Position numbers and translations under genes: made by a program | Sequence record: SRR31156797_5420 | DNA length: 42,042 nucleotides | Direction: 5' to 3' (one strand) | In this document: piece after piece, positions 38,003 to 42,042 of the stretch | Layout: each line of letters opens with the position of its first letter | How positions within the stretch are numbered: the stretch's first letter is position 1 | Notes under the pieces: generated by a model | Database searches by the model: none | What the model was told of the DNA's origin: nothing | What the model saw: only the letters and a program-made list of their open reading frames with translations

Positions 38003-39280
38003 TTATTGTGTCGGGTCGATGTAGTAGGTGATTTTCGCTCTGGGCGAGAGGTAATCGTGGGCTTCTTGTGATAGTTGAGCCAATCGGATGGATTTTTCGA
38101 CCTTGAGATCTGACTCATCCGCTAGATCAACGATGAGGGCTTCTTTCTTGGGAACATCGGGGTCGTACAACATGACACTCGGATTGAGCTGATTCTTCGG
38201 ATTTACAGCCATGACCATGCCTATGTCGCCGTTTGACAACTCGACGACTGTACCCGGTGGGTACACGCCCAGACAGCGGATGAACAGGGCCAGGTTCTCC
38301 ACATCATAAATGTGTTTTTGGTGGCCAAACATGTAGGACAGGGCAAGGTACGGAGTCATGGAGTTCATGGGATCGGCATGGTTGCAGTGGTTATCGTAAG
38401 CGTCTGCAATAGCCACAATGCGGGCAAGCCTGTTAATCTCATCCCCGTGAAGTTCCTCCGGGTATCCTGAGCCGTCCATACATTCGTGATGCTGGGCTAC
38501 GATGGTCACAACTTCTTGTGGGAAAAGATCAATATCGGCCAGTAATCCTGCGCCGAAAGCAGGGTGCTGCTCCATGATCTCCTGCTCTGGTCGAGTCAAT
38601 TCACCACGTTTTTTCAGGATTTTTTTAGGGATGCGGTCCTTGCCGATGTCGTGGAAGAGTGCGCCCAGACCGAGAGCGGTCATTTCCCTTTCGGTCAACC
38701 CGGCTTCTTTACCCACGATCATGGCGAGCACAGCGACATTCATCGGATGGGAGTAAGTAGCCTCTTCCTTACTCATGACATGCATCAAGTGCAGAGTGGA
38801 TTCTCGGTCGTTCAGGAAATAATCGGTTAACCTGTCCACAAATCCAATAGATTCCTGCAGGGATTCAATGTTGCCGCCGAGAACGCCTTTGAGGATGGAG
38901 TTGAAAGCCTTGATGCAGACAGCGAAGCGTTTTTCACACAGTGCGATGTGTTCTTTTTTCTGTCGAAGACGGACTGTCCGTTCATTTTTGATTTCCCACA
39001 GGTGGTCGATGACTTCCTGAGAGAGTTCTTTATCAATATCTGGTTGCGGAGGAGTTTTCTCAGTCGGTTTAAGGGGCAGAACGTCACTTTTTTCCGGGAT
39101 GCAGATCACATGGGAAATTCCCAGTTTTTGGATAAGCGCGACCTGTTTTTGGTCTTTGATCTTGAAGTTGCTGAACAAAAAAGGATGATCAAACCAGCTT
39201 GTTTTTTCCAGTCTGATGAAAACCCCTGGCCTTAGTTGGCTCACGGGGATTCTGTATTCTGTGTTGTTTTTGTTCACCAT
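38003..39280 (-). CDS. HD-GYP c-di-GMP phosphodiesterase with N-terminal DUF3391-like domain
   Basis: WFDHPFLFSNFKI N-domain; HDIGK, HHE, GSGYP, ADAYD, GVYPPGT; start uncertain (39280 or 39313). Confidence 0.88.
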   Translation of the reverse strand: MVNKNNTEYRIPVSQLRPGVFIRLEKTSWFDHPFLFSNFKIKDQKQVALIQKLGISHVICIPEKSDVLPLKPTEKTPPQPDIDKELSQEVIDHLWEIKNERTVRLRQKKEHIALCEKRFAVCIKAFNSILKGVLGGNIESLQESIGFVDRLTDYFLNDRESTLHLMHVMSKEEATYSHPMNVAVLAMIVGKEAGLTEREMTALGLGALFHDIGKDRIPKKILKKRGELTRPEQEIMEQHPAFGAGLLADIDLFPQEVVTIVAQHHECMDGSGYPEELHGDEINRLARIVAIADAYDNHCNHADPMNSMTPYLALSYMFGHQKHIYDVENLALFIRCLGVYPPGTVVELSNGDIGMVMAVNPKNQLNPSVMLYDPDVPKKEALIVDLADESDLKVEKSIRLAQLSQEAHDYLSPRAKITYYIDPTQ

Positions 39281-39544
39281 ATGAGTCAATTTTACCGCAT
39301 TGGACAATAACATACAATAGCTTTCACTTGGGTGCAGAGAAATGTTTTTTTAACCGTATTTCTTTGGAGTGTAAAAAATTGCTTCCCAGAAAAAATGTAA
39401 AAGTGAGCATAGGGAGTATGCTTTTCAGAAAGCGTCAGAGAGTTTATTTGCAAAGTATATTAAAATGATTTATTTAACCGTTAGTTGTAAGTGTTTTCCA
39501 CACTCTTTCTATTCGGGAACATTGGCTTTTTAGGCGGTATTGTG

Positions 39545-40033
39545 ATGACTTCCAAGAGTTCGAAGGCACGAAGTCCTTTTGTTGTTGGTTCGATCACGGT
39601 CTTTTTTGTGCTGTTGATTGGAATTGTTGTTTTCAAGGTGGGACTTCTTACCTCAATGCAGGCGGCCGGCAACGGCTTATCTGGTTTGGTTTCCGTCAGG
39701 GGGTCTGTCAGTTTGGATGATTTGCGGCTTACCAAGGCCGAAGTCTCCACAATCAACAAGGCTGTCGATTTGCATCGCAACACATTCACCCAGATTATAT
39801 TGACGTTGCATGTCAAGGGTGGAACAGAGAAAATCAAAAAAAATACAGAGATGGCTTGGTCGTTGGCATTGGAAACCAGTGGCAATTGTGAAGTTCGGTC
39901 ATGGAATCGAAAGGTCAAGCGTGATAGACTCGTGAAGCAGATGGTTTCGTATATGGAGAAGGCTGCACGTGAGTACAAGGATTTCAAAAAGTTTCCCGAT
40001 GTAGAGCAAAATTTTAAGACCTTGTATATTTAA
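39545..40033 (+). CDS. Hypothetical membrane-anchored protein
   Basis: Open frame with one N-terminal TM, ending just before a terminator; start uncertain. Confidence 0.65.
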   Translation: MTSKSSKARSPFVVGSITVFFVLLIGIVVFKVGLLTSMQAAGNGLSGLVSVRGSVSLDDLRLTKAEVSTINKAVDLHRNTFTQIILTLHVKGGTEKIKKNTEMAWSLALETSGNCEVRSWNRKVKRDRLVKQMVSYMEKAAREYKDFKKFPDVEQNFKTLYI

Positions 40034-40052
40034 CGATATTTTCATAAATTTC

Positions 40053-40084
40053 AAAGGCCTCGAAGTCACTTCGGGGCCTTTTTT
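40053..40084. terminator. Bidirectional terminator
   Basis: AAAGGCCTCGAAG/CTTCGGGGCCTTT plus T-run. Confidence 0.75.
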
Positions 40085-40089
40085 GTGCT

Positions 40090-40482
40090 CTATTCCTGTT
40101 CCATGTCCTTGAGCAAAATGTTCAATGCTTCTATGGAGATGCGGATTTCCAGGAAGGATATGACAAGTGAAATAATGAGAAAAAGTAAACTGGTGCCAAA
40201 CAAGAGTTGTCCCGCAAACATCCAGTCCTGAAAAATGGAAACCATGGAGAATATGCAGGCAAGCATGGACATGACTCCGAAGCCCTGCATATGACGAATC
40301 ATGTGAACTCGTACCCGTAAGTTCTCGATTTGTTTACGTATGGAGTCATCTTTTGAATCTCTATATTGATCATGCAGGTTGCGGATACGGCTCCCCAGCG
40401 ACAGGAAGCGGTTGGTGAAAGCGAGCATGAAAAGAGATATTGCCGGGAAGAGGAGTGCGGGTGTAGTTACGGATATTTGCAT
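40090..40482 (-). CDS. DUF2721 family membrane protein
   Basis: TTPALLFPAISLFMLAFTNRFL and EIRISIEAL motifs; 3 TMs; start at 40482 after GGAG. Confidence 0.8.
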   Translation of the reverse strand: MQISVTTPALLFPAISLFMLAFTNRFLSLGSRIRNLHDQYRDSKDDSIRKQIENLRVRVHMIRHMQGFGVMSMLACIFSMVSIFQDWMFAGQLLFGTSLLFLIISLVISFLEIRISIEALNILLKDMEQE

Positions 40483-40739
40483 AGGGGGCTCCCTGAAAGA
40501 GCGCGTAGCGCGTATAATCAAAAGACGTTTGTTTCAAGGACACAATGACTGCACCCTGTGTCATCAGTATGACTTGATTTTATCGTATTTGATTTAGAAA
40601 GTGTACCCGATTTTTTGTCCGCAAAAAAAATAACTCTCCATGATATTCAAAGGTGCAAACGAGGATTTTCCATTGTCTTGTTAGTCTTTTGGCAGTGGAA
40701 AAGGCTGTCAAGCTGTCTCCCGCTTTGCCTTTTTTTCTC

Positions 40740-40889
40740 TTAAGAAGATTCCTTGTTCTTTTTGGTCTCATCAGTATCCACGGGCAGATTTTTTTTATCT
40801 TCTTCATAGTTCGGGAACATGGATTTGAGTCCACGTTTAAGGAAATTTTTCGGATTGCTATTACTGTTGATGCTTGTTCTGAATGTCAT
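40740..40889 (-). CDS. Putative small charged protein (49 aa)
   Basis: GGAG RBS; MTFRTSINSNSNPKNFLKRGLKSMFPNYEEDKKNLPVDTDETKKNKESS. Confidence 0.4.
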   Translation of the reverse strand: MTFRTSINSNSNPKNFLKRGLKSMFPNYEEDKKNLPVDTDETKKNKESS

Positions 40890-41121
40890 GGTTTCTCCAC
40901 TTCTTTATATCGTTAAGTACGCGTTTGCCATTTCATAATTCCCTCTTTGGGAGTTTTGTGACTCGCGACACGTAATTGATATCGACTTTCATTATCAAAC
41001 GCAAGTGCTATTATGATGCGAGCAGGATATTCTGTAGATATTCTATCTTTTCAAGTTGATAGCGTACGGTTTTTTAGCATGGATGCGTTGATTTAGATTC
41101 GCTGAATTTTGATTATTAATA

Positions 41122-41179
41122 AAATAAGGCCGCTTTTTGCGAATGCACTTTACGTGAATCACCAAAAGCGGCTTTATTT
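41122..41179. terminator. Orphan terminator-like inverted repeat beside the transposon end
   Basis: AAATAAGGCCGCTTTT...AAAAGCGGCTTTATTT; no gene in the window ends here. Confidence 0.55.
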
Positions 41180-41207
41180 AAGAGTTGTATTGTCGTGCTA
41201 CAACAGG

Positions 41208-41356
41208 TGTAGGCGGACAATAAAGTTGTTAACGCCACATCCCGCAAAGCAAGGTTTCACCGTGAGGTAAATCGCGTGTCGGACAATAAAGTTGTTAACT
41301 AAGTGGCAGGTGGGGCACAAAGTTCGTTAATCTTGTGACAATAAAGTTGTTAACTA
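41208..41356 (+). mobile_element. Tn7-like transposon left end; element continues beyond the window
   Basis: Terminus TGTAGGCGGACAATAAAGT (Tn7 end recalled as TGTGGGCGGACAATAAAGT); identical GACAATAAAGTTGTTAAC at 41216, 41282, 41337; degenerate copy near 41314. Confidence 0.85.
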
Positions 41357-41641
41357 GCTGTTATGGTTTTTTCTTCGCCTTCTCGTCGTTTGGCTGTTTT
41401 CCTATGACTTTTGAGTAAAGTCCAAGAAAGCTTGTGTGCGTACCGCAGCCAGCCAGTGCTGCATGTGTTCTGAGGACTCGAAGCCAGAGGGGGCCTCTAA
41501 ATGGATCCTTATTGGAGGTTCTTTTAATCATAGAAATTTTGATGTAACTTCCTATTTTCAATTCGGTAATGGACCAAGCGACCCGTCTACGAAAGCAGAA
41601 CGCTACATAAGAATGATCAACTTACTGGTGCCAAAATTATA

Positions 41642-41908
41642 ATGAGACATTATAAACGAACGATTATGAATATATTTATTGGCTTATATTCTGTTATAGC
41701 ATTTGTTGTCGCGATGCCTATTATGACGTGTGCATCTGTCGAGTTTGGGATAAAGACTGTAATTTTTATTGTTTTTGTTTTGTTTTGTTGCTTCATGTTA
41801 GCCATTACGTTTAATAAAAAATCATTAATGATTATTTTTGGAATTGCTACGATAATGAGTTTGTGGGGGGTGGGATTTGCATATTTTATTCTCCCTCGAC
41901 TAGCTTAG
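41642..41908 (+). CDS. Small AT-rich membrane protein (transposon cargo)
   Basis: 88 aa, about 3 hydrophobic segments; TAATG overlap with the upstream frame; terminator downstream. Confidence 0.6.
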   Translation: MRHYKRTIMNIFIGLYSVIAFVVAMPIMTCASVEFGIKTVIFIVFVLFCCFMLAITFNKKSLMIIFGIATIMSLWGVGFAYFILPRLA

Positions 41909-41965
41909 TACTGTAAGAATACGTGACACGGGGACACCGTCTAATTAGCTTCCAGGAACAATAGA

Positions 41966-41999
41966 AAAGAGGCCCGACTAAGCTCGGGTCTCTTTATTT
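41966..41999 (+). terminator. Rho-independent terminator
   Basis: AAAGAGGCCCGA/TCGGGTCTCTTT followed by ATTT. Confidence 0.7.
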
Positions 42000-42042
42000 G
42001 TCCTTTGACATAGTCTGACCATCACCACCGCCGAGGGCATCC

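Follow-up and report, generated by a model that had tools for sequence, protein, structure and literature searches.

The last 835 bases (41208-42042) of a 42,042-nucleotide stretch of DNA from sequence record SRR31156797_5420, hereafter the window, open with TGT and three spaced direct repeats, and on their left stand the five bases ACAGG, a short inverted terminus and a hairpin with a T-run (Table 1). Our analysis supports the assignment of these bases to the left end and the first cargo of a transposon of the prototypic Tn7 family. Transposons of this family terminate in 5'-TGT ... ACA-3' within terminal inverted repeats, carry several TnsB sites, which stand apart in the left end and abut one another in the right end, generate a 5-bp target duplication, and encode a heteromeric transposase of TnsA and TnsB along with the regulator TnsC. 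From 41208 the window reads TGTAGGCGGACAATAAAGTTGTTAAC, and the 18-mer GACAATAAAGTTGTTAAC was found in three exact plus-strand copies (41216-41233, 41282-41299, and 41337-41354), corresponding to element positions 9, 75, and 130 when 41208 is counted as position 1. These were the positions given by an earlier reading made from the letters alone (the sequence-only reading), and they were borne out: no further copy was detected in the 42-kb window at up to 3 mismatches, and shuffled controls yielded a mean of 0.05 matches, with three matches reached in 0 of 100 shuffles. The degenerate fourth copy that the same reading had placed about 22 bp before the third was not recovered at up to 3 mismatches, its alignment needs an indel, and the corresponding stretch in seven related left ends contains no site. 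Several spaced, putative TnsB sites are present, as in the left ends of the Tn7 family. Moreover, 22 of the first 26 nucleotides of the element are identical to the right-end terminus of Tn7 (Tn7R), as printed in the tail of a primer by McKenzie & Craig (2006; PMC1475584). The identity of the three left-end sites at all 18 positions is an argument, rather than proof, for an end that is young, functional or still constrained.

Table 1. Features at the right-hand edge of the window, with positions counted from its first base.
Feature	Position	Strand	Remarks
Tn7-family left end	41208..41354	+	TGT at 41208-41210 plus three identical TnsB-type sites
Presumed left copy of the 5-bp duplication, ACAGG	41203..41207	.	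between two inverted Tn7-type termini
Fossil right-end terminus TGTAGCAC with one decayed TnsB-type site	41178..41202	-	older Tn7-family element
Hairpin followed by T-run	41122..41179	-	right-end hairpin of the Tn7 family, part of the fossil end
68-aa open reading frame, coding status uncertain	41436..41642	+	inside the element
88-aa hydrophobic open reading frame	41642..41908	+	start overlaps the stop of the 68-aa frame
Terminator-like hairpin	41966..41995	+	inside the element; conserved along with the stretch that follows it
Promoter-less frame LTITTAEGI..., running off the window	42015..42041	+	homology to the exoprotein of G001 and to orphan-like modules

Comparison with the two nearest genomes revealed where the element begins. 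The nearest genome, G001, has 63% of the sampled 31-mers in common with the window and is 97% identical over window positions 40000-41230; the two agree to ...ACAACAGG (41207) and then diverge. At this same spot, G001 is occupied by a distinct Tn7-type element, about 12.5 kb long (L012 3144-15691; G001:C1:241143-253691), whose sites are of the GAGTAATAAAGTT(C/T)TTAA type, three spaced on the left and three abutting on the right, and whose left junction is offset by 1 nt relative to that of the window. The minus strand to the right of this element encodes a 941-residue GlmS-like protein, the stop codon of the gene lying 7 nt from the right terminus. In the next species, represented by G344, the 941-residue gene, a hairpin homologous to that of the window and a DUF2721 gene are contiguous, without the repeats, and this block is syntenic with the window from 41207 down to about 39700 (96% amino-acid identity for the DUF2721 protein). 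The empty-site comparison that the sequence-only reading had recommended accordingly gave a break at 41207/41208 against G001 and an unbroken site in G344; the finding that reading had named as counter-evidence, repeats in relatives across unbroken synteny, was reversed, the G344 site being unbroken and free of the repeats. Because the GlmS-like gene does not lie directly to the right of 41207, something must have been inserted there, and the synteny confirms a recent, lineage-specific insertion at 41207/41208.

The hallmarks of GlmS are an N-terminal cysteine nucleophile, a class II glutamine amidotransferase (GATase) domain together with SIS domains, and a C-terminal AK(S/T)VTV tail. The attachment (att) gene of the relatives encodes a long-form GlmS-like protein of 941 residues, 80% identical between G001 and G002, which starts with MCGIASF..., including the N-terminal cysteine of class II amidotransferases, contains GATase_6 and SIS domains, and ends in ...IRHQAKTVTVGISRPQG, with the tail AKTVTVGISRPQG. 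The protein matched the glmS model TIGR01135 over most of its length, with 194 bits against a cut-off of 418, and aligned to solved GlmS structures over residues 263-785. When its C-terminal 200 residues were searched alone, no solved GlmS was matched, so that the homology of the tail rests on the AK(S/T)VTV motif and on the DNA register described below. No glmS above the cut-off was found in G001, G002, or G003, where the 941-residue gene was the only glmS-like one detected, and all 14 control genomes passed, from which the 941-residue gene is probably the GlmS of the genus, a working enzyme of long form. G001 additionally encodes a 348-residue SIS-only protein matching the isomerase half of GlmS (G001:C1:924509-925504). 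A GlmS-like C-terminus was present in 39 of the 42 genomes of the genus, Pseudodesulfovibrio. Eight of the 42 (G352, G360, G397, G405, G406, G407, G416, and G417) gave two such matches, equal in score in six genomes and different in G405 and G407; these pairs could reflect gene duplications or a second att site, and the only second-copy locus that was read, L092, showed no Tn7 end.

The distance between this gene and the transposon right ends was nearly constant. Thirty att loci were fetched and 29 were read, L091 being dropped because its tail could not be parsed. With a right end defined as at least two AATAAAGTT cores at 20-nt spacing, right ends were found at 14 of the 29 loci; the TGT was located 6 nt past the stop codon at 8 of these loci and 7 nt past it at the other 6. 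A single core was present at one locus (G344), and none at the remaining 14, where inspection by eye distinguished five truncated or decayed remnants from nine loci with nothing. In Escherichia coli, the TnsD site is described as extending from +23 to +58 relative to the centre of the duplication, which is the last 36 bp of the glmS open reading frame (ORF) (Mitra et al. 2010; PMC2918618). In the relatives, this centre lies 5 nt past the stop of the 941-residue gene, and the interval from +23 to +58 encodes IRHQAKTVTVGI, the E. coli counterpart being PRNLAKSVTVE-stop. At shift 0, 21 of the 36 nucleotides were identical to the end of E. coli glmS, compared with 4-15 of 36 at shifts of 1-9 nt in either direction. 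Owing to a C-terminal extension of seven residues, insertion occurs 6-7 nt rather than about 20 nt past the stop, and the distance to AK(S/T)VTV is unchanged. Traced via G001 and G344, the break point of the window fell on this position downstream of the gene as well, indicating a fixed-distance insertion at the level of the site and its relatives. Taken together, a register kept to the base provides strong, indirect evidence that canonical TnsD targeting would operate at this att site.

Elements with the same type of site showed what may be expected beyond the edge of the window. An exact-match scan with the 18-mer, covering one genome per species, identified the site type in 37 stretches, 13 of which had at least two related sites, and two of the matches were right ends in Pseudodesulfovibrio. 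In G002 (Pseudodesulfovibrio pelocollis), a right end of three abutting sites stands 7 nt past the stop of the 941-residue gene and is followed by tnsA (TnsA N- and C-terminal domains), tnsB, tnsC (AAA_22, Tn7_TnsC_Int), tnsD (TniQ and TnsD domains), tnsE (TnsE_C domain), and BREX-like cargo, with the left end on a separate contig. G240 contains a complete 23.5-kb element with left-end sites at 9/75/130 and tnsABCDE-sized ORFs inside the right end, and the first element of G254 shows the same left-end spacing. The termini of these relatives are TGT...ACA, and both ends are flanked by 5-bp duplications (AATGT in G002, GCAAC in G240). Their right end, with tnsA, faces the GlmS-like gene, in agreement with the gene-proximal right end that the sequence-only reading had assumed; the target and the targeting mode, which it had left undetermined, can be given for the relatives, namely a glmS-type gene and tnsD plus tnsE. 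The ORFs of the elements in G002 and G240 included no cas genes, so the mark of a CRISPR-associated transposon is absent from these relatives. The TGT terminus, the match to Tn7R, the recurrence of the 9/75/130 spacing, the break against G001, and the unbroken site in G344 jointly upheld the proposal of a Tn7-type left end. A published alignment (PMC4678854) already includes the TnsE of 'Desulfovibrio aespoeensis', and the occurrence of Tn7 in this group is hence not new.

The DNA on the left of the insertion has a Tn7 history of its own. Read on the minus strand from 41202 down, the flank consists of TGTAGCAC, then GACAATACAACTCTTAA, and then a hairpin, AAAGCCGCTTTTGG...CAAAAAGCGGCCTT, followed by a T-run. 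At 18 of 25 positions, the 25-nt fossil stretch agrees with the left terminus of the element itself, and it is the sole further match in the window; a single match of this kind arose in 2 of 30 shuffles. At 41122-41179, the minus strand folds at -24.6 kcal/mol (z -5.1) and the plus strand at -23.9 kcal/mol (z -4.3), energies matched by 0 of 200 shuffles for either strand, and a simple terminator scan had missed the structure because its loop exceeds the limit of the scan. In an alignment of 18 right ends, the flank corresponds to the innermost site and a conserved hairpin, which in this family normally separates the innermost TnsB site from the tnsA start codon. All 17 folded sequences, including those of G240 and of the Citrobacter IncN plasmid element, formed a hairpin of -23.8 to -33.6 kcal/mol, and the stem in the Citrobacter element differs through paired changes. 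A strong hairpin with a T-run was also seen before the tnsA ATG in every right end examined (L064-L089, L095, and L099 11230-11360). This conservation indicates that the hairpin is part of the transposon right end, where it is probably placed as an insulator, stopping transcription from the att gene into tnsA. Concealment of the tnsA ribosome-binding site by the 3' arm was considered and discarded, since the Citrobacter element has the hairpin without an AGGAG in it. An RNA gene serving as the attachment site was likewise rejected: an Rfam search of 39000-42042 returned two sub-threshold matches, none at the hairpin, and the window contains no tRNA. One sub-threshold match, suhB/mmgR at 40017-40093 (plus strand; 24.7 against 41 bits), coincides with a terminator hairpin after a 180-aa ORF and is probably meaningless.

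The sequence-only reading had taken the hairpin for the terminator of the attachment gene. Its origin proved to be different, since it is the right-end hairpin of an older, decayed Tn7 element; what stood is its position, because its ortholog in G344 lies directly 3' of the GlmS-like gene. This older Tn7 has left a terminus, one dead site, and the hairpin. Along the window, the order is therefore fossil right end (41202-41122, minus strand), ACAGG (41203-41207), and new left end (41208 onward). Of the proposed duplication, the left copy fits: the gene-side flank of the G001 element ends in ...TAGCACCTGT at its right end, showing the same five nucleotides (CCTGT in the orientation of the gene), and the right copy belonging to the window element lies outside the window. 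ACAGG is thus consistent with a target duplication of this element. Similar stacking was encountered elsewhere in the genus. In G240, the new element sits between the gene and a one-site fossil right end of the other subtype; in G195, the new element adjoins a three-site end of the other subtype; and in G254, a 28.6-kb element adjoins a 2.9-kb mini-element. The right end of the mini-element (L096; G254:C1:1781500-1785500) has four sites, its left-end sites are of the same subtype, and the second insertion in G254 adjoins like ends, where target immunity should block insertion.

We consider it highly probable that the window ends in the left end of a prototypic Tn7-family transposon, placed by TnsD at a glmS-type att site next to the decayed right end of an earlier Tn7. 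TnsD would bind the last codons of the 941-residue long-form glmS-type gene, and TnsABC would cut the element and paste it at a fixed distance downstream of the gene, with the right end and tnsA facing the gene and the left end pointing away. With the right end facing the gene, the left end would abut the DNA that formerly lay downstream of the gene, which is the decayed older right end (41202-41122). The architecture of the end, the break in synteny, and the fossil end were observed directly, as were the gene content, duplications, and insertion register of the relatives. We infer that the right end of the window copy adjoins the GlmS-like gene beyond the window and that TnsD was its selector; inverted GTTAACAACTTTATTGTC-type sites ending in ACA should then occur to the right of 42042.

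Several observations weigh against this interpretation. Neither tns genes nor the GlmS-like gene was found in the window by tblastn, and the right end and the second ACAGG also lie outside it. The binding of TnsD to this att site is deduced from geometry. The repeated flank in G001 reads ACAGGT, which is 6 nt rather than 5. A family-wide DNA search with the interior of the element yielded only short pieces (end sites or the last 100 nt), in 8 of 401 genomes. The G001 element at the same site retains both ends and a short tnsA remnant only, lacking tnsB, tnsC, tnsD, and tnsE, and no cognate tnsB was detected elsewhere in G001, where the best match was 30% identical over 250 residues. Full-length tnsA follows just 6 of the 14 right ends of the genus, with fragments in three more and one locus ending after 166 nt.

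The last two of these observations, together with the 2.9-kb mini-element of G254, also favour the closest rival, in which the element is of the same kind and the window copy is defective or non-autonomous, with an intact left end and tns genes partly or wholly lost, able to move only with a cognate TnsABC and TnsD supplied in trans. The perfect identity of the three left-end sites, suggesting a young or constrained end, and the presence of tns genes in the same-site-type elements of G002, G003, G240, and G254 speak against such a loss, and we regard a defective copy as slightly short of an even chance, the autonomy of the window copy being close to a coin toss. A solitary left-end scar, with the rest of the element and its right end deleted or rearranged away, has precedents in the truncated end remnants seen by eye at this site in L077, L079, and L087. 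It is nevertheless improbable, given that no GlmS-like gene stands where it is expected, directly to the right of 41207, that the sites are undecayed, and that the DNA past the left end is foreign to both G001 and G344. Another targeting mode, whether CRISPR-guided or a TniQ aimed at another gene, with the proximity to the GlmS-like gene incidental, draws on the location of the window copy's targeting genes outside our view; it appears very improbable in light of the tnsD and tnsE of same-site-type relatives, the lack of cas genes in the ORFs scanned, the fixed position of all 14 right ends at 6-7 nt past the stop, and the match in register to the E. coli TnsD site. Finally, irregularly spaced direct repeats can be regulatory, and yet the notion that the 18-mers serve a chromosomal gene as iterons or operator sites, and do not mark a transposon end, is scarcely credible beside the TGT terminus, the 22/26 match to Tn7R, the exact synteny break, and the complete elements that are bounded by these repeats and have target duplications.

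The interior of the element was examined for cargo. The 68-aa ORF showed no family match, and a search against longer proteins revealed no homologue. The 88-aa hydrophobic ORF had no NCBIfam match, and a pattern search for it in metagenome contigs gave 305 matches, 0 of which were confirmed; it is possibly an immunity-type membrane protein. Window positions 41929-42042 contain, in order, the internal hairpin, TTTGACATAG, and the LTITTAEGI frame, which is homologous to residues 1452-1460 of a two-partner-secretion (TPS) exoprotein encoded in the G001 element. Besides this 1935-residue TPS/haemagglutinin exoprotein, the cargo of the G001 element comprises a ShlB/FhaC-type transporter, an ankyrin protein, and HipB/HipA. 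Five places in four other genomes of the genus were 75-82% identical to the final ~100 nt of the window. In G280, in G352, and at both places in G254, a start-less ORF of more than 500 residues begins at the ITTAEG motif, and at the fifth place (G195), the frame ends after 13 codons (loci compared: L012 9937-9962, L055, L056, L058, L059, and L062). These stretches resemble orphan toxin-tip cassettes preceded by a leader that is conserved and non-coding, and the repeat nature of the last ~100 nt may be the reason that the window stops there. A plasmid collection searched with window 41208-42042 gave no match, and a search of metagenomes for two 18-mers at the left-end spacing gave 0 matches.

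These findings settle the annotation of the locus, in that the repeats are a transposon end and the hairpin is transposon-derived, and at 41208 a whole mobile element sets the strain apart from its closest sequenced relative. The known picture of Tn7 is unchanged by an element of this ordinary kind, and the points of some interest include the toxin-related cargo and the fact that, at the level of strains, two Tn7 subtypes alternate at one site. At least two Tn7 site-subtypes use this site within one genus, stacked beside decayed ends, which bears on the escape from target immunity. The site also offers a natural test case of TnsD recognition, with a very divergent att gene and a footprint register kept to the base; conservation of the register despite the divergence of the 941-residue gene fits the view that TnsD reads the codons of the active-site tail. 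A bolder and rather doubtful proposal is that the glmS-type att site acts as a swap point at which alternative Tn7-family elements deliver contact-dependent toxin modules, the hairpin of each wave becoming the terminator of the host gene. Its basis is the complete two-partner-secretion operon in the G001 element and, in the window, the small membrane ORF followed by the promoter-less toxin-tip cassette starting from the LTITTAEG motif. If this proposal were true, the transposon would shuttle cassettes of toxin tip and immunity gene that can recombine into a resident secretion gene, and with every wave of Tn7 a right-end hairpin would stay behind to serve the host glmS-type gene as a working terminator.

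Among known systems, CRISPR-associated transposons (I-F3, V-K, and I-B) have the Tn7-family ends and core machinery in common with the elements described here; unlike them, the relatives in this genus carry TnsD and TnsE, with no cas genes seen in those examined. Tn7-like elements of plasmids are related in sequence. The G002 element encodes a TnsB that is 53-57% identical to those of plasmid elements from Shewanella (Shewanella khirikhana), Proteus, E. coli, and Citrobacter (Citrobacter freundii pRHBSTW-00302_4), and this TnsB is below 60% identity to all 1796 matching records. The right end of the Citrobacter plasmid element likewise has TGT, three abutting AATAAAGTT-type sites, a T-run hairpin, and then the tnsA ATG, whereas these gammaproteobacterial elements differ in the flanks of their sites and carry a type I restriction system as cargo; being plasmid-borne, they were probably placed by the TnsE pathway. 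A match in a Klebsiella plasmid (H9) was set aside unused, as its annotation places an IS903B-family transposase gene immediately 5' of tnsA. For the Tn7-like islands of Acinetobacter baumannii, remnants of ancestral insertions at the att site have been reported and target immunity discussed (PMC11014353). Those islands resemble the present case in the reuse of one att site, the persistence of old remnants beside newer elements, and the question of how immunity is bypassed; the present case differs in its glmS-type site in a genus of sulfate reducers and in an older end that is either one dead site with a hairpin or of another site subtype. The elements also parallel the prototypic Tn7 of E. 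coli (tnsABCDE, with attTn7 downstream of glmS). The relatives have 2-3 right-end sites at 20-nt spacing to set against those of Tn7, and their att gene differs from that of E. coli in encoding a 941-residue long-form GlmS-like protein below the glmS cut-off, as does the point of insertion, 6-7 nt past the stop here and about 20 nt in E. coli. The likenesses comprise the TGT terminus and 22 of the first 26 nucleotides of Tn7R, three spaced left sites in the window and abutting right-end sites in the relatives, 5-bp duplications, a gene-facing right end and the tnsA-E order in the relatives, and a +23 to +58 interval that spans the homologous AK(S/T)VTV codons in the same register.

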